Assembly: GCA_023920165.1 (NCBI GenBank) | Contig: CP089275.1 | Location: forward strand, 4,154,001 to 4,218,000 | Origin: Curvularia clavata | Taxonomy: Eukaryota | DNA length: 64,000 nucleotides | Direction of reading: 5' to 3' | Part shown: positions 17,409 to 64,000 of the stretch, in pieces | Numbering within the stretch: the first letter of the stretch is position 1 | Layout: each line of letters starts with the position of its first letter | The notes under the pieces: model-generated | What the model was told of the DNA's origin: nothing | Seen by the model: the letters and a program-made list of their open reading frames with translations, nothing else | Database searches by the model: none | Translations under genes and position numbers: made by a program

Positions 17409-19253
17409 TCAGACTAGGTAGATATCCTGCTCTTCTACATCCCACTCTACCCAGTCTTTACTGCTCTCCTCACCTAGGATGTCTACGAAGACTTCATCAT
17501 CCATTATCAAAGTTGTCTCCTTTCCTGTCAGATGCGTGCCCCCAAGAAAAGAGTAATACTGTTCTTGGGCTGTTGCCCGTAGGATGCATGGAGTCCAACA
17601 ACCAAAAACTATTCCACACAAGTCACCCTGCTGGGTAATATCAGGGGCCAAGCCAAAGTATCCGCGCTCTGTGACGATGAACCTGCATCCATCTATGAAT
17701 ACTTTCATGGTGTTCAGATAAAGGTCCATTTTTTCGTCTTCGCTACTTGTAATGTTTGATTGAAGCGAAACCTCGCCTTCCCTAGACCCACATGTGAGCT
17801 TGGCATGTTTCGCAAAAGCTGCCCTGTCACCTCGCCAGGCCTTCCATTGTCCGTGGTATCTGCCTAGGCATAAAGTATCGAGGAAAGCATCTAGCATGCG
17901 GGTTGACCCATACGGAGATTTAGTCGTATGAACCTTGACGTCCTCCCATATTTTTGACAGGATCTGTAGCTTTGACGAATGAGTCATGGGAATAGATGCA
18001 TATCGCACTCGATCCAACATAACGCCCCGGGCCTTGAAGGTGGTATCGTCAATAAAAACTGGCGTACATATATCGTCGTCACGAGACGACAAGCCTGTTT
18101 TTCTCCCGACTTTAGATGGAAGCGAACGTACTGGGACATCCCAGCGGGGGATCCACGAGGCTACAACCAAATCTACGGCTCCAATTGGATGACAAACGTA
18201 GTCTAGAACTCGAGGACTTGAGGTGGTCTTGGTATACTCAATCGCAAACTGCCGATAAACCTCCAGAAATGGCTGGTCATAGTCTGGGGTTATGGTGATT
18301 CCCTCTGTGTCATCGTTTGACAACTCCATAAAGGCATAAATCCTATCTCTTGGATCCGAAACTTGGAGGTATTTGGCAAAATTGAGATCTCGCAACACGT
18401 GAAGCGCACTCATCGAATTGTAAATGCGCAACGCATCGGCAAACTGTCTGTGCTGTCTTGCATAGGCAGCAGTGTGCAATTTTATGGACCAGTTACGAAT
18501 CTTATTTGCGTGGAAGGTTCTCCAGGCTCGATTCGCTAGCCACATGTGCACGCACATCAGGTCTTTCCAGAGAAACTCACTAGAGCCCCAGATGAACTTG
18601 CCAATTTTCGCAAAGGCGGCTTCCCTTACAACCCAACCGCGTCTGAACCACTCTTTCTCGACAAGATGAAACATTGATTTCCATCGGCTATCAGAAAGAA
18701 GAGGATCGTTTGGTGAGGGATAAGGAAATTCACGTGACTGTGGACCAACGAGACGTTGACATATGGATTTGATCATCTCAGTAACCTCATCGAGCAAAGA
18801 GCATAGCTGGGGTCCATGGCCGCCTTCATCAGGTCCTACATAGATCAATACCTGCTTCGCTGAGCGATATATTTGGCCCATAATGGCGACCTGATGGCCC
18901 TTCTCTTTCAAATCGTCTTGGTTGATGCAGATGCCGTCCGCCCAGAGTTTGCGTGGAGCATCCGGAAGGCGTAGACTTTGAAGAACATCGTATAGGCTCT
19001 CAGTAATCTTGATGCTACGGCCATCGCAAGTGATCTTCCTGTTTTTGATATCCCTTCCCCAGACGTACGAGATGGCTTCAAAGGAGACGTGATGCAGGGG
19101 TGCGGTGCAAAGACTGCATTCAAGCGGTTCGTTGCCCACACCGGGCTGAAGGGTGAGACAGCGGAAAGAATCGTCACGAGGAAGCTTGTCGTACTCATAA
19201 GGTGTGCCAAGGACAGAAGGAATTTGATTCGAGCGCTGGTATATGCCCTGCAT
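17409..19253 (-). CDS. Heterokaryon incompatibility HET-domain protein (HET-6-like), intronless
   Basis: FEAISYVWG, LWADGICINQDDLKEKGHQVAIMGQIYRSAKQV, WFRRGWVVRE, SDPRDRIYA, C-terminal FIVTERGYFGLAP..GD..GCWTPCILR. Confidence 0.9.
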   Translation of the reverse strand: MQGIYQRSNQIPSVLGTPYEYDKLPRDDSFRCLTLQPGVGNEPLECSLCTAPLHHVSFEAISYVWGRDIKNRKITCDGRSIKITESLYDVLQSLRLPDAPRKLWADGICINQDDLKEKGHQVAIMGQIYRSAKQVLIYVGPDEGGHGPQLCSLLDEVTEMIKSICQRLVGPQSREFPYPSPNDPLLSDSRWKSMFHLVEKEWFRRGWVVREAAFAKIGKFIWGSSEFLWKDLMCVHMWLANRAWRTFHANKIRNWSIKLHTAAYARQHRQFADALRIYNSMSALHVLRDLNFAKYLQVSDPRDRIYAFMELSNDDTEGITITPDYDQPFLEVYRQFAIEYTKTTSSPRVLDYVCHPIGAVDLVVASWIPRWDVPVRSLPSKVGRKTGLSSRDDDICTPVFIDDTTFKARGVMLDRVRYASIPMTHSSKLQILSKIWEDVKVHTTKSPYGSTRMLDAFLDTLCLGRYHGQWKAWRGDRAAFAKHAKLTCGSREGEVSLQSNITSSEDEKMDLYLNTMKVFIDGCRFIVTERGYFGLAPDITQQGDLCGIVFGCWTPCILRATAQEQYYSFLGGTHLTGKETTLIMDDEVFVDILGEESSKDWVEWDVEEQDIYLV

Positions 19254-19420
19254 ATTGTAAAATACGGATTTGCATATGTTTGCAACGAATGGTAGATTTG
19301 ATGAGCACGAATCTGGAAGCAGGGAATGAGAGAACAATATTGGGGGAGCCTTCAGGCACCCAACCACTCTACCCAAATCAGCCCCAGAGCTTACAGCTCA
19401 TGTGTTCTGCGCCTCACAGC

Positions 19421-51552: not shown

Positions 51553-52670
51553 GCGGTACACACGCTATACAAGACGCAGTCCTAGTTCATATGTCTTACT
51601 ATTGTAGTATATATATATACATATTTCCTGTTATCGGTTTTCACAGCTGGCTCGCCTACTGCAATTGGCCCATCAAAGTATCTCAAAATAACGGCAGGCC
51701 TGCCCTCACTCTACCGAAATGATAGTATTTGTTAACATCCAAAAGCTCACGGCAAAATTTTATATTCCAGATTGAATCATATAGAAGGATTTAGCTGTCT
51801 CACATCTGTTTTCCAACACTGGCGTAGTGAAGACGGCGCGTTTGGTCAACACGCTAACCCGAGAGGTTCTTTATGAGCGGATATACCAATCGTTCGCCTG
51901 ATCCAACGCCTATCTTCGCCCCTGTTGGCATTTCGTTATCTGCGGAACTGCTCTGTCCTACAGCAATTGTCGAAGACAGATTCGGGACGCTTGAAACGAA
52001 GGAAGAGAATAGTCCAATATATTGACTTATATGAAGATTCGATGTAGCGGATGAATGAACTTGGTGTAGCGGTTGGCGTTTTAAATGGAGCGTTAAATTC
52101 TGCTATAGCAACTGCACCGATACTGGATGAAGCGGTCAATGTTGTTGTCGCTATCCACGGGGGCATAGAACCTTAGCTGTACTTGTGCCAGGAGGTTCTC
52201 TTGGGTCCTACAGTGCCTCCCAGTTTGAGAAGGGTTTATACTTGCTACAACTATTTGAGAAATATATTGGAGATCGCTTGATAGTTACTTGCTGAATTGT
52301 GCGGCAACGACCAAGAAGAAGCATGCACTGCTCGAGAGCATCTTTCCCTAAGTTGTCTTCGAAAACCATGTAGTTATACTGAAATCCTAATCACCCAGTC
52401 TCAGTGTAAAGAAGTTTGCAGACATACTTGAGGTGGTTATGTTCGCGAACAGAACGTGTGCGTGTTGTTGACATTCTACAAAACGAATATTGAAGAAAGC
52501 ATCTAGTGCGCCACAGGCTTTTTTAAAGGCCTACTTCTGTCTGCTCCTGAGGAACATCTTGCTTCTATCGCCGATAGTCAATATATGTACCATTCGGGTT
52601 GTGCAAATGGCCGCTCTGCTCTAGTACTACTGATTGCATCCTTAAAAGACCATCGCCATCGACTGCAGTC

Positions 52671-53685
52671 TTACAACACAAGCATTACCGTCGCCACCAC
52701 ACCAGCCGCCCATCCCACCATCTTCGCACTAATATTAACCCCGGAACTCTCCCACGGCGTCTCTTGCGCTGGTACACGGCTTCCTCCCACTGTCTTGTTC
52801 GCAGTCATACACACGAACTCGACGCGGCTTTGGATCAAACTCGATTCTGGGTCAACGAATCGTCCCAGTATGACGAGTGGTATCGTCTGGCGCGTTAAGA
52901 GATCATACGTCTTGTTCGCATCCATATTGACGTCGATAGCATTGGACACTTCGACGCCTATGGCTGTCCCGAACGTGCTGTAATTGTCTGGTATCTGTAC
53001 CTCGGGCATGTTGGTGTAGGCGCACGTGCTGTTGGTCACGTCGAGGAACTTGGAGTCTGTGTCAACTCATTAGCTGGCTGTACAAAAGGTGCAAGTCTCG
53101 AGTCACAAGTCAGTAGTATATGTTCTCTGCGGGTGGAAAATAAAAGAAAGGGCATAAGGGGGGCTTATACAAGGACCACGGATGGAACGTACTGTGTGAA
53201 CCGCCTTTCAACATTGGACACGCCTCGTTGAACGTTTGTGATGTTGAACCAGTCTCAGCGTACGGACAGTAATATGTCGAATCACTCAGTACTTTAGTCA
53301 GGTGGTCAATACAGACCGAGCTGATCACACCGCTACAGCTGTTCTGCCCTCCGGGCTCTAACGTCGCATTGATGTTGGTGTATTGGTAGCTGCAGATCTC
53401 GGTGCCATTGGGCACGTTTCCAGGTACGGAGATGTAAGTATCTGCCCTGACGTCGTTCGTATGGTTCCATTCTGTCCCTCGAGATCCGACAAGGACAGAG
53501 ACATACCACGGGTCGTCGTTGGCGTAGGAGGAATTCCAAGTGAATTCGTGCCGGCCAGTTGAGTTCACGGTCCTGAATTCCTGGCGATAACCTTGGCAAG
53601 AGGAATTTTGCGCATTGACAAACGCTGTCGTGAGAAGTCCTAATATTGTAAAGAGCAGCAACTTTGGGTTTTCAGATGTCCACAT
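52671..53685 (-). CDS. Secreted Cys-containing hypothetical protein with probable GPI-anchor signal, 2 exons
   Basis: Hydrophobic signal peptide (LLLFTILGLLTTAFVNA), several Cys and N-x-S/T sequons, C-terminal SSG..AKMVGWAAGVVATVMLVL; intron 53192-53057 joins the two ORFs in frame. Confidence 0.8.
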
Positions 53686-54324: not shown

Positions 54325-57300
54325 CTATTGACCTGAGCGACGAGGGGAGCAGAGAATGGGAGCACCGTGCATGGTGATTAGTGATGCAAAGGCTTGCTCA
54401 CGCTCTCCAAACTGCTTCTTCCACTCATCACAGACGCCTTGTTGAAGAGTGTCCACCTCCGACCTCGTCCACTCTCGACCTGGCCGAGTCCAAGACACCT
54501 CGAGTTGGTGTCTTAACAAGTTTATTTTATACTTAGTCGATTCAAATGCAGCTAGTAGAATCAATGTCAGCAAGTTCAATTTATCAATGTGCCCTTGGCT
54601 TACACTTTTGATCGTCCCCAACATTGTACCATGCCTTCACCTTCATGCGGTCCTCGACATATTTGCGTTGCTCTTGGAATAATCTCAATCCAGAGAAGTG
54701 TAGCTCTCGACCACGTAGGCAGAAATAGCCATGCATCCACACTAATTCGAATGAATGATATATTTCTGTATGTGCGGCGATCCAAGGTTGCTGCAGGAGG
54801 TTTTTCGCAACCATGATGCGTTCTTCATCATTATCGTCTGACCCATCGCTCTGCAGGAGCACTGGCTCTGAGAACTTCATCATTAATCACCTATCAAACT
54901 GGTTTGGTGTCTTACCTTCATCAAATCCCCATGGCTCAAGCTCAAACCGCGTAGTTACTCTTTCTAAGAACTCCTGGAGTTCGGACTTGGGCATAAACCT
55001 CGCTGGAAGCATTCGAGAACTGTTCAAGTCAGAGTTGACTTATAGGGGAAATTGAAGCTCATGGGCTCTTACCGATGGAGAATTCCTTGTAGCTCAGATT
55101 CATGCAAGGCTCCATCTTCACGCATAATTCTGTACCAGGCGGCGACCTGTTGACGATGCATATTGAGGTCGGAATGGAGATAGTCACTATCATGAACCTG
55201 CTCTTTACTCTCGCCAGAACTACTGAATGGATTTCCTCCGGGCCTCTGGATTCGAAGAGTGATTTCGAAAGACCAAACAAGGTTATCAATCATCGTCTTG
55301 TTCTGTTGTACCTCGTTGTATGGCAATCTTCTGGGTGGTTCCATATTTTCAACGTAGCTTTTGAAGACTCGCAGCGCTGTGAAATTTCCATGAGCGGCTG
55401 CACTGTGCGCGGCTCCCAGCCTTCCTGGTCTACGTTCACTTAGGCGCGAGTACTCCGGGTAGTGAGTCAAGAGAAGCCTGACCAATTCCGCTCGCTTCTG
55501 ATCAGAGGCTCCATCTTTTTAACCGATTATTACCAATTATTGTTTCAAGAAAATAGATCTACACATACTTTGCAATGGCCCGCCAACAGCTAACGCGAGC
55601 AATGTGTTCCCAAGCCCATCCATGAATCTTGGCTTGGGGCTAAGATTGAGGAGGTACTCAACATGTGATTTGTCCACAAGTCCTTGATGATTGGAAAGGA
55701 CGATGATCGCTCCCGTAAGGGTATATTGACCTAGACCTGGTATTGAATCATATTCAAGCGCGTATCTTTTTCGTAATTCTTCGGCAACTATTCGATCTTG
55801 TAAGTATCCATCCGTCAACAAAAGAGCAAACACTGTAAACCCTGATGAGTTACTCAGCTCAAGTATCTCTCTCACGTAGTGGCCATCCTTGACGGATGAA
55901 GTGGCCTCTAGGAATTCTACCATTCGAGGAATCATTTCAGGAAAAAATTGAGCAGCGTAGTGGAGACAATTACCACCCTCAATTGGGTCTAGCATATTGA
56001 CGTCTCTCTTGAGAAGAGCTTCGACGGTTGGTCTATTTCGACTGTCGAGTGCCGATCGCAGCATATCAGGTGACAATTTCTCCGAAACACCTGTCTCAAT
56101 GTCAAGAAGCGCTTCAACCAGGTGACCTCGTCCACTGATGATTGCTAATCTCAAAGGAGTGATATTTTCGTCTGAGTATTTGGACTGTCTCAGAACTTCC
56201 ACGACGTCTGGCCCTACAATGAGGCTCAACGTCTCTCGGAGTTTTTGTTCGAAATTTGATCCCGCCTCACACATCAGTCGAAACTTTGTATAGCGCGCTA
56301 AGTTTCTGAAAGCGTGTGCTTTGGCTTTAGAGACTTCAGACGTGGGCACTTTTGCCAGCATTTGCTTTAGCAGCTCGTAATTCAAAGTACTAGCACATTT
56401 CGAGATTGGCGTTATGGTGTCCAGGTTGTTGGGAGTTCTAAAATTTGGGTCCGCTCCCCAATCCAGCAGAAATTGTACTGCAGTCCCCTGGGAGTAATCG
56501 AACGCCGCCAATGCCGCTAGCAGCGGCGTTATGTTGGCGTCTGATCCCTCGTTGACGTCTACTCCATTTTCTATCGCCCATTTTCCAATATCTTCCACCT
56601 CGGAAGGCTCTGCAAACCGACTTAGAAAGTGAAAGATACCAAATCCCATTCGATCTCTAAAGCAGGGATCAGCCCCATGATATCGGAGCTTGGTGACCAT
56701 ATCATAGTATCCGAGATAGCACGCAATCCAGAGTGGCGAGAACCCTGGCGTGTTACCGATCTCATCCACGCTCGCTGAGAGGTCCTTTAGAAGAAGATCG
56801 ACCATGCATTCGTCTCGATTGCAGACAGCAATTTGCAACAGCGTGAAACCTGACTCGTTTGGTTGATCAAGGCAACCGTGTTGTCTGATCTGTTGGATGA
56901 GTGGTGGTCTCTCCAGATCTGTAAGTCTGCCTGAACCATACATATTGTATGACAGAATGGCGGAGTCATATACTGCTTTGCTATCTTCATTAGAAAATTT
57001 CTCCAACAGGGCGACATGAAGTATATGGGGCAGGATGCAGATCAATTCCCGCGTTTTTTCCTCCTGGGACACACTTGCGAAGTGTTCTGGACATTCCCGA
57101 GCCCAGGTCTTGGCGGCGAGTATCTTGTAATTAATGGTATCAAGATCATCAGGATTAAGTTGAACCATTTTCGTCCCTGCAATCCAAGTTAAGTATGCGT
57201 CTTTCAGCTTTTGTGCGACCGATTCGATTGTGCCAGGAGGACTCTCGTTGCCAATGGAGTGAAACACATTCACAGCGCAAGCAATCGCTTCTTCACACCC

Positions 57301-58958
57301 TTTCTTTATCGCGTCGGTGAGGTACTTTGCTCCAAGGTCGGATGCGTCCGACATTGTACTATTGAAAGCTGCTGCTGCAAGCTCAAAAGTTGCCCGGCCC
57401 GATTGGTCATCGCCGTTACGAATTTGTTGTTCCAAACTATTAATCACTTCTATGGAAGTCTCACGCTGGACAGCAGCAGATCGGAACATTGTCTCACATG
57501 CGATCTAATTCATCAGCAATAGGATCGCAACAGTAAATCTCGGTGCTTACATCAGGAGTAGTTTTGATTGGCCTTACACGAAGCTCTGCCCCGCGTATAT
57601 CAGCTTCAGAGGATATAAGTACAGGGAAGGGACTCGGCGCTATTTTTTCGTACCAGAGAACGGTTCCGCCAACAGGACGAGAGCGATCTCGGCTTGGAAA
57701 GGGCAGCAGTACGGCTCTGCGGCAGTTAGCCTTCGACAGCTCGATGCCGACATGCTATTACTTACTGGTTGTCCATCAAGTCGGAGTCGAGATCCCACAT
57801 TAAGATAAACATCATGGTCGTCCGGACGATGTGGTGCGCGGCAGCAATGTGGCAACGTTCTTCTGTCTTTGGAGTCAGGCACTGAGACAACAGACTGTCT
57901 AGACATGGCTCTGTGGAAGAGTCCAGTGAGTTTTGCGCTGAAATTTCCAGTATCAAAACTTTGAAGCAGGAATTGTCCTCGAGTGGATTTGCCGTTTTCA
58001 TCGCCAGTATCGCATCTCTTGACTGCTCCGGGAAGAGTTCTCGACCATTCAGCATGATGCTCGCGCTGAGCAAGCCAAAGCTATAAACATCAACAAGAGC
58101 TAGATCGCTGAGAGGGATGGGCTGTTTCAAGTCTATCTCAGGTGCCATCCATGGTTCGGTTCCCAATCGGTCTTGGAACGTCCGCTCTGAAAGGTAGTCT
58201 GCTGCAATTACTGAGAAGCCAAAATCGCAGATCTTCACATTGATCGGCCTGATACCCCTGAGATCGAGGTCTTGGAGGTCAGGGTCGTCAAAAACAAGGA
58301 CATTCTGAGGCTTGAGATCACAATGGACGACGCCGTTTGCATGAAGGTATCCTAGACCAACGGCGATCTGGTGCATGATGTGAAGTTTCCCAACCGCCGA
58401 AATTGTTTCCGTTGCGCGTAAGTATTGTTGCAAATTACCATAAGGAGCACCTTCGAGGAGCATCTGTGGCCAGAACCGTCCTTGAACCTCGACCTTGTGC
58501 CACGAAATAGCCAGTAACCGAATAATATTTCGTGATTTCCGAATACTCTTATTCGCCAGAATACGGAGTTCGTTTGTGATAGCAGCCAAAGCACTCGTAT
58601 CGTCTTTCCTATCTTGTGGCTGATTCCTTGGATTTATCCTTTTCATTACATAATCCTTCAAGTCAATTCTATCTCTAGGAGATTGTTTGTTAAACCATTC
58701 TGGGCGCACGTAATTGATAAAATCTGTTGCGAGTGATGCATTCAGGTGGTCGGATGACCTTTCCACCGCGAAAGAAAACCCGGTACCAGTATTAAAAACA
58801 CCAGAACCAGCTTTCACACTGTGTCGCTGTGCGAGAATGGGAACTCCTAATGCCAAAGCAACAGCAAAAAACTCGGCTTGCCTGGTGACAGTCCCGTGGG
58901 GTCGGCTGAGTATTTCCGACTCAGGTTCAGCCTCGCTGTAAAGGTCATAGTCTGCCAT
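54325..58958 (-). CDS. Protein kinase with Sel1-like and ankyrin repeats and an unassigned C-terminal region, 7 exons, ~1,440 aa
   Basis: Kinase motifs GTGFSFAV, VMKR, NELRIL, HCDLKPQNVL, DFG, GTEPWMAPE, DVYSFGLL. Ankyrins SGFTLLQIAV, GFSPLWIAC..HGADP, NITPLLAAL..WGADPN, ITPLRLAII. Six GT-AG introns (donors near 57765, 57550, 55568, 55072, 54916, 54603) each keep the frame. Confidence 0.85.
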
Positions 58959-59325
58959 TACGGTTAACAATTGCTCTGAGTCGTCCAGGTATCGATACAC
59001 AATTGTAATGATCCAGTTGTGCAGTACATGGATCAGCGGGCTATTAAATTCCCAAGGAATGAAGATTGTTAAGAGGAAGTACAGCTGCAGGCGACGTGTT
59101 CAGCTGATGATAGCATTATTGGTGGCTTGCAGGAGCTGAGGCAGACTACACCAATGAGTGAGAACCGACATGACATGACTGCGGTTCAAGATTGCCCCAC
59201 TAAAAGGGAGAAGGTATAAGAGCCTCCTGAAAGCCCAATCCAAAGTGCATGTAGTTTCAGGCGTTTACAAGACCTCCATAATCAACTTTGCCAAAGACTA
59301 CTCTTCCCCAAAAAAGACTGCGACA
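58959..59325. promoter_or_regulatory. Putative bidirectional promoter shared by the kinase-ankyrin and HeLo-pseudokinase genes
   Basis: 367 bp between divergent ATGs; TATAAG-like element near 59215; otherwise inferred from geometry. Confidence 0.55.
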
Positions 59326-61136
59326 ATGACGAGTCTGGAGATACCTGCTTTCATCGTAGGACTCTCCGGACTTGCGGCCGTATTTGACAAGAGCTGCGCA
59401 ATCTGGCGGACCATCCGCGAAGCAGAAAATTTTGGTGAAGATGTAGCAGACCGCCTCAGAATTCTGGAAATGGAGATTTTTAGGTTCCAAACGTGGTGGG
59501 AAGCGCTCGAAAAGCTTGCAGTCCAGGTAGCTAGGTTCTGAACCGTCGTTGGCCATAGTGTGACCACTCATCTCCGCATCAGAACCCTCCCGTCAAATCC
59601 AAGACGATCCCATCTACGCTCTTAGGCTCTATACTAGCCAACCAACTCCGCGATAATCTTGAGCACCCTATCACAAATGCAGCATCTCAGATTTCGAAGC
59701 TGCTGAATGATGTTCAGACAATCCTAATCGATCAAGGTGTTCTGCGGGCCACAGTCGGGTCCCAACTGTTCAATGCACAAGCGGCTCAAAATCCCAAGAC
59801 ACTTGATGAAGACCTAGAAAATTCACATTCTAGGAGGAGAAAGCTTGCGAAGGATTTGATGACTTCAATATCGTGGTGGAAGAGAGTACAATACGATGCA
59901 AAGCCTTGGGATGAGTCAGTGAAGTCAGCTCTGGCGTCCAAGTTGCAAGACATTGCGTACTGGAATCGTGCTCTATATGATATACTTCCCAGTCGAACAC
60001 GAGATAGTATTCTCAGCCAGGGCATATCCGCCTACATTCTATCAGATCCTCAGGAGGCTAGTAGTGTTTCGAAATTGAAGCAGGACGTCGTCAGCGAGAC
60101 TGCCAAGTTGTTGGTGTCCAGGAGACAGTTGTTGGGGAAATCGGGAGACCCACCCAACACCAAACAACTGGCAAAGGTTACTTTGGCACAAGATAAATTC
60201 GGTTCTGTTCCTACCATACTCCCAGACTCCAAAGTGTCTTTCCTTGATAGTGGGAATCAGAGATTCCTTGTCGAGTGGTACCCGTTTCCAAACCATGGCG
60301 GGTATAGCGACTATGAATCAATTCTAGCACTTGCCGAGGAAAGACTCAAGTGTCTTTCGCTACTATTGCAAGAGGAAACTAAGCCGTCTACACTCATAGC
60401 TTTGACCTCTCAAGGCTGCTTTCGCTGCGACTCTCTCCGCGCCTTTGGTTTAGTCAGCGTGCTACCGCCAGAAATATCAAACACGCACTCTCCAATCCTC
60501 CTACACGATCTTCTCCAACGAAAATTTGAAGATCCAAGTACCAATTCTCATTTCTTGCCGACTCTGAGTCAGAGATTTACCATCGCATCATCTTTGGCTA
60601 GTAGTCTTTACACATTCATGCTGGCACGGTGGCATCATAAACGATTCAACTCCCAGAGTGTCTTGTTTACTCACATGATGGAGAGTCAACTACCGGACCT
60701 CACGAAGCCTCTCGTGTGCGGTTATAGCGTTTCCCGACCTTCTCATCCTGAGCAGATTTCGTTACTAGGTCCCTCGGATGAGGAGCAAGACCTGTACCTT
60801 CATCCTGATCTACGACAGAATGCTAGTACCAGGCCAAAGTACCAGAGGGAGCACGAGATCTACGCTTTCGGTCTGCTCTTGGTTGAAATTGGATTTTGGA
60901 ATACCTTGGCGAGGATAGCAACGACAAAGGATCAAAAGGCGGCTTCTAGATCTGGCGGAGATCTGCGGGACTTTCTTATCAAGAAGTGCACAACGGAGAT
61001 GGCATGCTGGATGGGATCGAGATTCCAGGATGTAACGCTGCGCTGTCTCAAAGCTGGACATAGTTACCAACAGAGTTGTGGTTTCGATAAGAATGACTTT
61101 TACTGGGACGTAGTATTAGAGTTGGCAGAATGTTAG
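59326..61136 (+). CDS. HeLo (prion-inhibition and propagation) domain plus kinase-like pseudokinase protein, 2 exons, ~584 aa
   Basis: N-terminal MTSLEIPAFIVGLSGLAAVF..AENFGED..LEMEIFRFQTWWE (HeLo pattern). Intron 59527-59582 is in frame. C-terminal LVEW, PTLSQRFTIA, WHHKRFNSQSVLF, GYSVSRP, LYLHPD, EIYAFGLLLVEIGFW, MG..F..V..RCL. Confidence 0.85.
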
Positions 61137-61263: not shown

Positions 61264-64000
61264 TTACATGAACATATTGATAACGCCTGACCGATCAGCA
61301 GATACGATCATCCCATATGGCTGCTCGATAAACGCTACATCGAGAATACAATCTACATGACCTTTGAGAAGGTACTGCTGCTGTAAAGCAATGGCACTTG
61401 ACCTTGAGGATTTTCCCGCCGCCTTCTTGTTTGTTGTATTCACCTTGCTTTCTTTCCCGTTGCCTTTCTGGTTCATGGGCTGCTGCAGCTGTTCCGTAAC
61501 AACAATCGTATCTGGGCTTGGTTGAGAGACAACATACTGTGGCTTTCCTTCGTCAGCCTCGAGCCCGCTGACTACAAGCGAACTGTCTGCGCGACTAGTG
61601 TCCCAGTAGCGGATTTTCCAGTCTGGGCCCGCAGTGATTAGGAAAGTGTGTTTCGAATCGCCCCTCTCATCGGTCGTCTGTGTGTGTACTGCGATCGCCC
61701 TGACGCCCCGATCTGCTGTCGAACTGGCAGTTGGCTCAACACTGGTAGCAAAACGACCAAGCATTCCACCTGATCTTTCTTCATCGAGGTCGATGAGTGT
61801 TGTACTCTTGACACCGATATCTTTACATGAACCAGTACGGTACACCTCTTTGCAAATATGCTTTTCAAAATCCCACACGGTCACTTCACCTTGATCACTG
61901 CCCCCAGCAATGTAGAGTCTAGTCTTCTTCGCCTTTGGGAGAAAGACTTGGTGAAGTCTGTGGATAGGCGATGCGCCATGGCAAACCCAGGCCTTGAGAC
62001 GTAGCTTGAACCGAAGATCCCAAAGATCGAGTACACCATGTGACGTTCCCAGCAGCAACCAATGTGCTTTTCGATCGACACAGAAGCAAGTGGGTGTTCC
62101 ATGGTCGAGAGGGTTGTTGAGTGTATAGAGTAACTCCATCGTGCGTAGGTCTAGGGCAAGAATTTTTGAATTGTTAGTAGCTAACAAAAGGACAGACTTG
62201 TTGTCTCCACTGTAGTGCTCGGACCAGACGGCAAAATCTCCTTTAGGCAACTGGTACTCGCGAAGGAGACGGGGCCGGCCAAATTTGGCGTTGCCATCTT
62301 GATTCTGTAGGTAGTCGATGCGAACCACGTGAACGCTCCCATCACTGCCCGTCGCAACGAAGGAATATGTTTGCTCAACAAAAACTAGGCTAGTGACTTT
62401 GACGTCTTCGCCTAGTTTGTATGTTTGCCGAGATCGACGGGTAATGTTGCGCTCAAGACGTGACGTGTCCCAGATCTTCACGCTCCCATCGTCAGAGCCG
62501 CTGATGAAAAATCCTTGGTCAGGCGACACCAGTACTCGCGTCACGGCAGCTGTGTGCTCGCTGAAACTAGCAACAAGTGTACCTTCTGGACGCCAAGGAG
62601 TGCCTGCAGGCGATCGATGCGCATCTTTGTACTTGATGGGCTGTCGTCGGATAGGAGGTTGTATGCGAGGACCGAACTCGATTTCCTCAGTTGGAAATCG
62701 CTCGAGTAGCATTGAATCCAGTAGCTTCAATATTGCTGGATCATTTCCTGTGTAGTTGTGCGCGTTTCGAAAACGAATCCGCAGCGGACTTCGTTCAAAT
62801 CTGTCTACCGCAAGCGGCGACATTGGTTGTCTAGATCGAGATGACTCTCGGGGATGAACTCCATCCACTTTTCCAAGAACATTTGCAGAAGTTGTTCCAA
62901 TTTCTGCAAGAGCCTTATTTTCTCCTCTTCCAAGCAGTCCTAACGCGCTACTGCGGTGTCGGAGGCCGTTAGAAGGATCGATGGATGCTGTTGAGCCTGA
63001 AGGGGAGGAAGAAATTTTTGAGATCTTGAGAGAATTCCTCCTTGTCTCGGAACCGGAGGTTGGCGAAGATTGATCATTAGGGACGTTACGCGGTTTGGAT
63101 CGAGACGGGATTGTGATACCTCTCTCTTCGCGGACTAGTCGTCCAGCTTGGCTTTCGAAATGTGGCATCCGATCAGCCAATCCGTCGGCCTCGGTAGTCG
63201 ACGCATCCAAAAGTGCATCTTTGATGGTGCGAGGCGGTAAGTGGTCTTCTGGCGCATCAGCCCTCTTAGTTTGCTCCATAACTTGACGAACGTCTTCGTC
63301 GAACAGCACAGTTTGTGCTTTAACGCCAAGGTCCTTCAGTGTAACAATGCTGTTAAATCTAGCGGTAGGCGTGGAAAGGCTGTCGGAGCGCCGACGATGA
63401 GCAACTCGCCAAATGAACTCCCGGAGTGCCACCAGCTTGAAGTCCTCGTCGGGGTTCAGTCCTGCTTTACGCAGCTTTTGGAGCCACAACTCATCTTCCT
63501 CATTTTTCGGCAACCGTTGCAAAACTTTTTGGTCAAGTTCTCGGCCTGAGATAGTTGGAAGGCTGTCATCTGATGATCCAAACGTGAACGTTTGCTGGTG
63601 CCTGGCTGCTAGCCAGAAATGTCCCTTTTGAGCTTGCAGTGCCCAGTTAGAAGCCATTTCCAATAGCAGACGTGACATGGGACTCTTCAACGACTCCAGA
63701 ATACGTAATTCGGAAAACTCAGCAGGGATGACTTTAAGATATGGCCTGATAAGGTTGACCAGGATGCTATGAGTATCGGCCACTGATAGATATGTCGATG
63801 CAGCAGAGATGAATTGAGCTGCTGCTTCCCGTATCCAAAGATTTGGGTGCATCGTCAGCCTTGCAAGGATGTCCACTAGCTCCCATGTCTTGGAACGCTG
63901 GAGTAAACCAAGTTCCGCCATCGAAGATAGGGATCTAATGACTTTCTCTACTACAAACTCTTCGGGATCTGTCAATGCCTGAACCATAAGTGGCAATATG
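61264..64000 (-). CDS. VPS15: PI3-kinase regulatory subunit Vps15 (HEAT and WD40 C-terminal part; 5' end lies beyond the window)
   Basis: PLMVQALTDPEEFVV, HPNLWIR, WRPEGTLVASFSEH, GSDDGSVKIWD..RLERN, HGTPTCFC, LDLWDLRF, IVSADRSGVI. Confidence 0.92.
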   Translation of the reverse strand, partial: ILPLMVQALTDPEEFVVEKVIRSLSSMAELGLLQRSKTWELVDILARLTMHPNLWIREAAAQFISAASTYLSVADTHSILVNLIRPYLKVIPAEFSELRILESLKSPMSRLLLEMASNWALQAQKGHFWLAARHQQTFTFGSSDDSLPTISGRELDQKVLQRLPKNEEDELWLQKLRKAGLNPDEDFKLVALREFIWRVAHRRRSDSLSTPTARFNSIVTLKDLGVKAQTVLFDEDVRQVMEQTKRADAPEDHLPPRTIKDALLDASTTEADGLADRMPHFESQAGRLVREERGITIPSRSKPRNVPNDQSSPTSGSETRRNSLKISKISSSPSGSTASIDPSNGLRHRSSALGLLGRGENKALAEIGTTSANVLGKVDGVHPRESSRSRQPMSPLAVDRFERSPLRIRFRNAHNYTGNDPAILKLLDSMLLERFPTEEIEFGPRIQPPIRRQPIKYKDAHRSPAGTPWRPEGTLVASFSEHTAAVTRVLVSPDQGFFISGSDDGSVKIWDTSRLERNITRRSRQTYKLGEDVKVTSLVFVEQTYSFVATGSDGSVHVVRIDYLQNQDGNAKFGRPRLLREYQLPKGDFAVWSEHYSGDNKSVLLLATNNSKILALDLRTMELLYTLNNPLDHGTPTCFCVDRKAHWLLLGTSHGVLDLWDLRFKLRLKAWVCHGASPIHRLHQVFLPKAKKTRLYIAGGSDQGEVTVWDFEKHICKEVYRTGSCKDIGVKSTTLIDLDEERSGGMLGRFATSVEPTASSTADRGVRAIAVHTQTTDERGDSKHTFLITAGPDWKIRYWDTSRADSSLVVSGLEADEGKPQYVVSQPSPDTIVVTEQLQQPMNQKGNGKESKVNTTNKKAAGKSSRSSAIALQQQYLLKGHVDCILDVAFIEQPYGMIVSADRSGVINMFM

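Follow-up and report, generated by a model that had tools for sequence, protein, structure and literature searches.

A HeLo-pseudokinase gene and its head-to-head kinase-ankyrin neighbour in Curvularia clavata: a candidate fungal cell-death module resembling RIPK3-MLKL

In a 64,000-nucleotide stretch of the Curvularia clavata genome (contig CP089275.1, positions 4,154,001 to 4,218,000; hereafter the window, whose own numbering is used for coordinates), a gene on the plus strand (59326-61136) encodes a protein of 584 amino acids that joins an N-terminal HeLo domain to a C-terminal pseudokinase domain. Head-to-head with it lies a gene for an intact non-RD kinase with ankyrin repeats. We propose, with a probability of roughly 0.57, that the two genes form a fungal cell-death module like RIPK3-MLKL, in which the 584-residue protein would be the executioner half. 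This reading is supported by the fold and the dead catalytic residues of the pseudokinase, its HeLo homology, the intact partner, the linkage of such genes in related loci, their parallel trees, in-frame fusions and the transcription of both genes. The initial annotation had suggested that the pseudokinase domain may act as a conformational switch, and the neighbouring active kinase, absent from that annotation, is the strongest support for the idea.

Results

A kinase fold with a dead active site

AlphaFold2, run on a 139-sequence alignment, gave a model of the 584-residue protein (mean predicted local distance difference test score, pLDDT, 88.2; predicted template-modelling score, pTM, 0.87). 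Helices make up the N-terminal half of the model, and a domain of two lobes begins near residue 256. When the model was compared with 48,161 chains by VIA-align, the top matches were IRAK1 and BRAF (Z 19.8, root-mean-square deviation 3.1-3.4, about 250 residues aligned); mouse RIP3 reached Z 18.3, and the top Foldseek matches were all kinases, with IRAK4 among the best. The predicted kinase-like domain is therefore a true kinase fold of tyrosine kinase-like (TKL) or tyrosine kinase (TK) type, although structure does not single out MLKL, since IRAK1 and BRAF scored above rat MLKL, which came at rank 46 (Z 16.8). The domain covers residues ~256-584 (60147..61133, plus strand): it does occupy the interval 60240..61136 originally assigned to it, but begins further upstream, at about 60147. 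In Pfam, DUF7580 matched residues 363-578 and Pkinase gave no match in the protein.

All motifs quoted in the initial annotation lie at their given positions on the plus strand and inside the 584-residue protein. They comprise the beta3 strand LVEWY (60267-60281), with E298 at the position of the catalytic lysine; the pseudo-catalytic loop WHHKRFNSQSVLF (60630-60668), in which the HRD position reads HKR; the sequence GYS at the DFG position followed by the invariant R452 (60720..60737; GYSVSRP, 60720-60740); LYLHPD (60792-60809), whose LHP stands at the APE position; the C-lobe motif EIYAFGLLLVEI (60855-60890); and RCL (61041-61049). The register was taken from a profile alignment to the intact partner kinase family, which places R421 at the HRD aspartate, S426 at the catalytic asparagine and G447 at the DFG aspartate. 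All three catalytic residues, the beta3 lysine and the HRD and DFG aspartates, are thus missing, as expected of the pseudokinase that had been predicted.

The same holds for the family. A search with its profile retrieved 4826 clusters at E-values up to 0.001, and residues were counted in 97 aligned relatives of 480-700 amino acids. The beta3 lysine position is glutamate in 91/97 and lysine in none, the DFG aspartate position is glycine in 93/97 and aspartate in none (the next residue is phenylalanine in 82/97), and the HRD aspartate position varies freely, with aspartate in 9/97. No relative has GxGxxG. H419 and R452 are each present in 97/97, and the K420 position holds lysine or arginine in 87/97. 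Judged from these residues, the HeLo-DUF7580 family is one of pseudokinases throughout. The possibility that some relatives are active kinases was rejected, as those with the HRD aspartate have neither the beta3 lysine nor the DFG aspartate; P0189, for instance, has the loop HKDLKSSN, yet reads GFD at the DFG position. The conserved asparagine, described earlier as absent, is indeed replaced in the window's protein (S426) but is kept in 72/97 relatives, so its loss is local to this subgroup.

Helix alphaC (311-328 in the model) carries R321 (60342..60344, plus strand), and E298 and R321 occur together in 85/97 relatives. This suggests a charge-swapped bridge, although the alphaC register differs by three residues in the partner-kinase profile alignment, where C324 and not R321 stands opposite the partner's alphaC glutamate. 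With glutamate in place of the beta3 lysine and arginine on alphaC, ATP binding has probably been lost.

Gene structure and the HeLo domain

The gene starts at ATG 59326 and has one intron: exon 1 (59326..59526) encodes residues 1-67, a 56-nucleotide GT..AG intron follows (59527..59582), and exon 2 (59583..61136) encodes residues 68-584 and the stop, all on the plus strand. The spliced joint is present in RNA contigs of two of the four runs (X7 and X16), and the database protein P0001 is identical to the product in sequence and length. A frameshifted pseudogene was rejected, the break in frame being this intron.

The HeLo domain spans the intron (residues 11-232, 59356..60077, plus strand; Pfam PF14479, 36.3 bits against a cut-off of 23.2), and this half of the protein is all-helical in the model. 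Residues 4-20 (59335..59385, plus strand) form the 17-residue segment of highest hydrophobicity in the protein (1.95); this helix aligns with the N-terminus of HET-S, at the position of its membrane-inserting helix, and the hydrophobicity there is at least 1.6 in 64/83 relatives having an N-terminus. Between HeLo and pseudokinase, the model contains helices 204-251, which are profile-aligned to the same region of mouse MLKL. The protein stops at the last kinase helix, with no tail past the C-lobe.

Searching the sequences of the PDB with the family profile returned HET-S HeLo crystal chains first (E 3.5e-24), and next a full-length chain of mouse MLKL (E 1.4e-13), matched over profile positions 81-484, with MLKL pseudokinase domains at 1e-10 and 8.3e-10. 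MLKL was the first of the kinase-fold matches, ahead of LIMK1 (1.9e-7), IRAK4 and BRAF, a rank that may come in part from the shared loss of the two aspartates. In the alignment, the catalytic loop of the family falls on mouse HRNISSSS, GF-x-x-S-R on GFELSK, and the beta3 glutamate on the lysine of VTIK; E298 stands opposite that lysine in the HMMER alignment. The MLKL-like substitutions claimed earlier therefore apply to two of three sites: HKR and GYS resemble MLKL (HGK and GFE in human), the beta3 glutamate does not.

The intact kinase partner

The partner gene (54325..58958, minus strand; introns supported by RNA) encodes 1443 amino acids. Six introns interrupt its coding region, and the frame stops at 54325 in spliced contigs. 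The 367 bp between the two start codons (58959..59325) are probably a shared promoter. The kinase domain (57837..58658, minus strand) is non-RD (HCD) and has every catalytic motif: a Gly-rich loop, K106, the alphaC glutamate E130, HCDLKPQN, DFG and APE. HxD-K-N and DF are present in 25/25 aligned partners, and among single-kinase matches the partner family profile is nearest to LRRK2, MLK/ZAK, Roco4 and IRAK4. The ankyrin-repeat region lies at approximately residues 666-973 (55950..56870, minus strand).

Spliced contigs of both genes come from the same runs and cannot rank the expression of the two. An alternative 68-nucleotide intron (57586-57653, minus strand), seen at lower depth in two runs, shifts the frame and yields a kinase-only partner of 418 amino acids without ankyrin repeats, a product that may be an active form encoded by the gene itself or may reflect noise in splicing. 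The C-terminus of database protein P0025 (residues 1370-1640) was rejected as part of the partner, because spliced contigs reveal that, beyond residue 1369, the database model wrongly runs on into the adjacent gene. The sequence joined there belongs to a separate spliced transcript (52215-53684, minus strand), which encodes a small protein with a hydrophobic end, no Pfam match and a start that resembles a signal peptide. Prediction of a complex between pseudokinase residues 250-584 and partner kinase residues 10-397 scored 0.00 in two runs without alignments and with controls not folded, a score that counts neither for nor against binding.

Conservation of the gene pair

Metagenomes were scanned by pseudokinase patterns alone, giving 500 matches, of which 153 were confirmed; the best 80 of these 153 loci formed 54 clusters at 85% identity (L038 is probably a duplicate of L036). 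Kinase domains were found no farther than 5 kb away in 30/54 clusters; the proportion is 28/35 where the upstream flank measures 2 kb or more, and 17/21 where both flanks measure 3 kb or more. The expectation by chance, from 138 Pkinase matches in the 32.4 Mb of the C. clavata genome, is about 4%, and the 164 kb past 5 kb contained a kinase at 4 loci, compared with 30 in the 316 kb within that distance. A formal P-value would overstate the case because the loci are related. Nineteen of the 30 neighbours are head-to-head, six tandem downstream, four tandem upstream and one convergent. Repeats follow the kinase on the same strand as ankyrin in 19 clusters and as tetratricopeptide repeats (TPR) in two; eight have none (three cut by contig ends) and one was unscanned. 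The repeat scan covered 69 of 84 nearby open reading frames (ORFs), and kinase and repeats are shown as a single gene for the window gene and P0026-P0029.

In the C. clavata genome, five of six family genes, one of them found through its kinase, have a kinase-repeat partner beside them (three ankyrin, two TPR); the sixth, a long form on contig C3, has none within 36 kb. None of the five DUF7580 genes without a HeLo match in this genome has such a partner. Elsewhere, the pair carries consecutive accessions in Clohesyomyces (ORY06679.1/ORY06680.1) and Schizothecium (KAK0749675.1/KAK0749676.1).

Partners have HxDxKxxN in 28/28 cases and are non-RD in 27/28; non-RD kinases are a class associated with innate immunity (PMC8463890). 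The pairwise identities of kinases and pseudokinases correlate across 28 pairs (Spearman 0.37, reached in 0/5000 permutations), seven loci that were duplicate, split or MAPK-like having been left out (L038, L047, L082, L085, L093, L097 and L098). Two clades of seven members, one with the window gene and one with HKD/HRD-type kinases, are common to both trees, of which the pseudokinase tree was built by a quick method. The parallel trees show co-inheritance, not contact.

An intact-motif kinase is fused in frame ahead of the pseudokinase in 3/54 loci and in 5/143 library proteins. The three fusions are single ORFs (L105:4284-6605, L082:2880-5201 and L098:5216-7645) with a fungal tandem kinase-pseudokinase architecture; they are without most of the HeLo match (profile positions 164-558 only), and a kinase-TPR gene also adjoins L082 and L098.

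A single conserved candidate phosphosite

The initial annotation had nominated the serines just after GYS as regulatory phosphosites. Conservation narrows these to one, and the other serines past GYS were rejected as candidates: S460 (60759..60761, plus strand) is Ser/Thr in 93/97 relatives, the most Ser/Thr-conserved column of the whole protein (background 13.9%), and the only conserved activation-loop Ser/Thr, while S449, S454 and S465 are unconserved (19/97, 14/97 and 19/97). S451 (61/97) alternates with alanine (33/97) and is probably structural. In the HMMER alignment, S460 lies four residues past mouse MLKL S345. K420 and R452 stand at what we take, from PKA-type kinases, to be the places of the phosphate-binding residues in ordinary kinases. 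The phosphosites of MLKL are S345/S347 in mouse and T357/S358 in human (PMC11476962). A silent phosphomimetic, which had been put forward as a refutation, would be unsafe as one, since the T357E/S358E form of human MLKL leaves cells alive (PMC6013482).

Neighbouring genes and other DUF7580 loci

The neighbours of the HeLo-pseudokinase gene are the kinase-ankyrin gene and, downstream, a HEAT/WD40 gene (61264-64000, minus strand) that runs on into a kinase domain past the window and is presumably Vps15-like; there is no adjacent NLR. In one contig, the transcript of this Vps15-like neighbour overlaps the end of the HeLo gene. Among housekeeping genes of the window there is also a HET-domain gene (17409-19397, minus strand; Pfam PF06985, E 1.8e-30).

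The closest relative of P0001 is P0002, which is 87% identical and labelled Monosporascus, presumably of another fungal class than C. clavata; most relatives are below 50%. This pattern suggests that the gene may have moved recently by horizontal transfer. Next to the pair on contig C7 there is a DDE/Tc5-type transposase, with similar-looking ORFs on the other side of that pair and near another DUF7580 locus (L024:2746-4509, L025:1606-2415 and L017:6595-8079). At L072 (686-4740), an ankyrin gene is head-to-head with a family pseudokinase and the preceding ORF of 357 amino acids has no kinase or other Pfam match, so that this may be a different or decayed partner. The five DUF7580 genes without a Pfam HeLo match (G000 C7:1576164, C6:1887789, C2:451855, C1:56796 and C2:3879541) include two that are head-to-head with TPR genes, one that precedes a subtilase domain near an NB-ARC/TPR gene and two that face unannotated ORFs. 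In fungal immune clusters, DUF7580 appears to serve as a kinase-like module of general use.

Discussion

Proposed mechanism

In the resting state, the pseudokinase and the helices before it would keep the HeLo bundle closed. The partner would serve as a sensor kinase, whose ankyrin repeats (TPR in other members) may detect a non-self or damage signal and free the kinase. The kinase would then phosphorylate the activation loop of the pseudokinase, most likely at S460, and the changed pseudokinase would release the HeLo N-terminal helix for oligomerisation at the membrane and death of the cell compartment, as reasoned from HET-S and MLKL. The 584-residue protein most likely works like MLKL even though it is without the beta3 lysine, a defining feature of MLKL.

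A broader proposal is more tentative, and we put it at slightly under even odds: a widespread, amyloid-free core of fungal necroptosis built of gene pairs. In each, a non-RD kinase whose ankyrin or TPR repeats are interchangeable would act as sensor and phosphorylate its cognate HeLo-pseudokinase at a single conserved Ser/Thr of the activation loop, and a charge-swapped beta3 Glu/alphaC Arg switch would operate without ATP. With at least five diverged cassettes in one genome, such pairs would add another class to the immune sensors of fungi, next to the NLR-amyloid and protease-gasdermin clusters.

The HeLo proteins known so far from fungi are either activated by templating of an amyloid or form part of NLRs. 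If the proposal is true, fungi and animals would both have a kinase-to-pseudokinase death switch, whether inherited or convergent, and the fungal pseudokinase would do without the ATP-binding lysine of MLKL. MLKL-shaped fungal proteins have been noted without a named activator in the passages of PMC12881547 covered here, and the present locus offers a candidate activating kinase. The candidate kinase, the single candidate phosphosite and the several cognate and non-cognate pairs in one genome make a fungal kinase-triggered death switch directly testable.

Alternative explanations

Several results weigh against a RIPK3-MLKL-like module. Linkage and parallel trees give no direction of control, because both follow from co-inheritance. 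No kinase was found within 5 kb in 4/21 well-flanked loci (one lies at 5,035 bp) and beside one of the six paralogs, and the kinase neighbour at L093 looks like a housekeeping mitogen-activated protein kinase and is probably there by chance. The activation-loop Ser/Thr is not pair-specific, because loci without a kinase neighbour keep it equally (6/7 against 24/28 paired loci, counted by a loose pattern with a few mis-matches), and it is unsupported as a marker of paired genes. MLKL is likewise unsupported as the closest structure, the beta3 lysine that MLKL uses in its switch is absent, and the first 10 residues of the model have low confidence. In plants, MLKLs can function without killing the cell (bioRxiv 10.1101/681015). 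The core of a RHIM has the form (I/V)Q(I/L/V/F)G or GxQxG; by this simple pattern none was found in partner residues 1-1369 or in three relatives.

The best-surviving alternative, which we nonetheless regard as unlikely, has the direction of control reversed. The kinase-ankyrin protein would act as an antidote or guard, holding a toxic HeLo-pseudokinase inactive either through binding or through an inhibitory phosphate. Cells would die when the kinase is lost, when a pathogen factor blocks it or when cell fusion leaves the two mismatched. Head-to-head linkage and parallel trees fit this equally well, the several diverged pairs in one genome suit pair-specific control, and wheat MLKL is auto-active once its kinase site is perturbed (bioRxiv 10.64898/2026.08.07.743466). 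A guarded toxin is harder to square with the HeLo-pseudokinase genes that persist without a nearby kinase, and the repeat arrays of the kinases match a sensor role in fungal NLRs (PMC12258605). Divergent allele classes were also not seen, with 26 single-letter differences over 10 kb in the contigs of four runs, which is a weak argument.

More doubtful is a pseudokinase that serves as allosteric regulator or decoy of the partner kinase, in the manner of JAK or of plant tandem kinase-pseudokinase proteins, with kinase signalling as the output and HeLo as a scaffold instead of a pore. The in-frame fusions, from which most of the HeLo match is gone, are what it would lead one to expect; plant tandem kinase-pseudokinase proteins act in immunity (PMC13519141), and the immune role of plant MLKL is separable from death (bioRxiv 10.1101/681015). 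In the free proteins, however, the HeLo domain is complete and its first helix is hydrophobic (64/83 relatives), and this is the part needed for the toxicity of HET-S (PMC7889193).

Still less probable is a co-regulated mobile defence island whose genes do not act on each other, the pseudokinase being switched by another kinase, a ligand or a protease. Retention of the activation-loop Ser/Thr in unpaired members agrees with it, as does the ankyrin gene without a kinase match at L072, and the patchy relatives and the 87% identity to the Monosporascus record suggest movement as a block. But linkage holds at about 25% identity and across four orientations, involves two kinase lineages unrelated to each other and extends to fusions, and retention specific to kinases is unexpected under passive hitch-hiking. 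Finally, the notion that the domain is an atypical enzyme using shifted residues such as H419, K420 and R452 for phosphotransfer or another reaction can draw on the high conservation of its active site (H419 and R452 in every relative, asparagine at the catalytic position in most), but is hardly credible with no Gly-rich loop, beta3 lysine or metal-binding aspartate in any of the 97 and a freely varying HRD aspartate position.

Comparison with known systems

MLKL and this family share an N-terminal HeLo or four-helix bundle (4HB) domain, probably a helical linker, and a C-terminal pseudokinase with the HRD aspartate lost, DFG replaced by G-aromatic-x (GYS in the window's protein) and Ser/Thr in the activation loop. 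The human motifs HGK and GFE, cited in the initial annotation, agree with PMC6013482, which also gives VAIK230. MLKL differs in having the beta3 lysine, a bridge from it to the alphaC glutamate and ATP binding, where this family has glutamate and arginine; the K230-E250 bridge is central to the MLKL switch (PMC8044208). Common descent with the pseudokinase domain of animal MLKL is not established, MLKL being first by profile and 46th by structure. The upstream kinase resembles RIPK3 in being TKL-like by its profile, and differs from it in being encoded next door, in its ankyrin or TPR repeats, in being non-RD and in having no RHIM core.

Plant MLKLs likewise combine HeLo with a kinase-like domain. 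The activation loop of AtMLKL1 is phosphomimic-sensitive (bioRxiv 10.1101/681015), and wheat R3NLR-R3AK pairs a sensor gene with an MLKL executioner (bioRxiv 10.64898/2026.08.07.743466). There the sensor is an NLR and not a kinase-repeat protein, and the Ser-rich tail of AtMLKL is absent from the 584-residue protein. Plant tandem kinase-pseudokinase proteins hold both domains in one chain, as do the fused L082, L098 and L105, whereas the genes of the window are separate and its pseudokinase has a full HeLo domain.

In fungi, HET-S or HELLP with an NWD2-type NLR also places a HeLo executioner beside a repeat-bearing sensor, and the N-terminal helix of HeLo is the part on which HET-S toxicity depends (PMC7889193). 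Here there is no prion-forming tail, the neighbour is a kinase and not a NACHT/NB-ARC protein, and the proposed signal would be a phosphate and not an amyloid fold. Similar in architecture are the proteins of a 2025 review (PMC12881547), which likens fungal HELL domains joined to a kinase or pseudokinase to MLKL and asks for studies of the extent of necroptosis conservation in fungi; the passages covered contain no motif analysis, partner kinase or experiment. A pairing of HeLo-pseudokinase and kinase was not found in the literature searched (titles, abstract openings and passages, with few subscription journals and supplements outside its scope), nor is the pair described in the covered parts of PMC9815663, PMC10197012, PMC5485727, PMC12258605, PMC11476962, PMC12463104, PMC13519141 and PMC7889193. 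The HeLo-(pseudo)kinase architecture was thus already known in outline, and what is added here is the kinase partner, the single conserved serine and the Glu/Arg swap.

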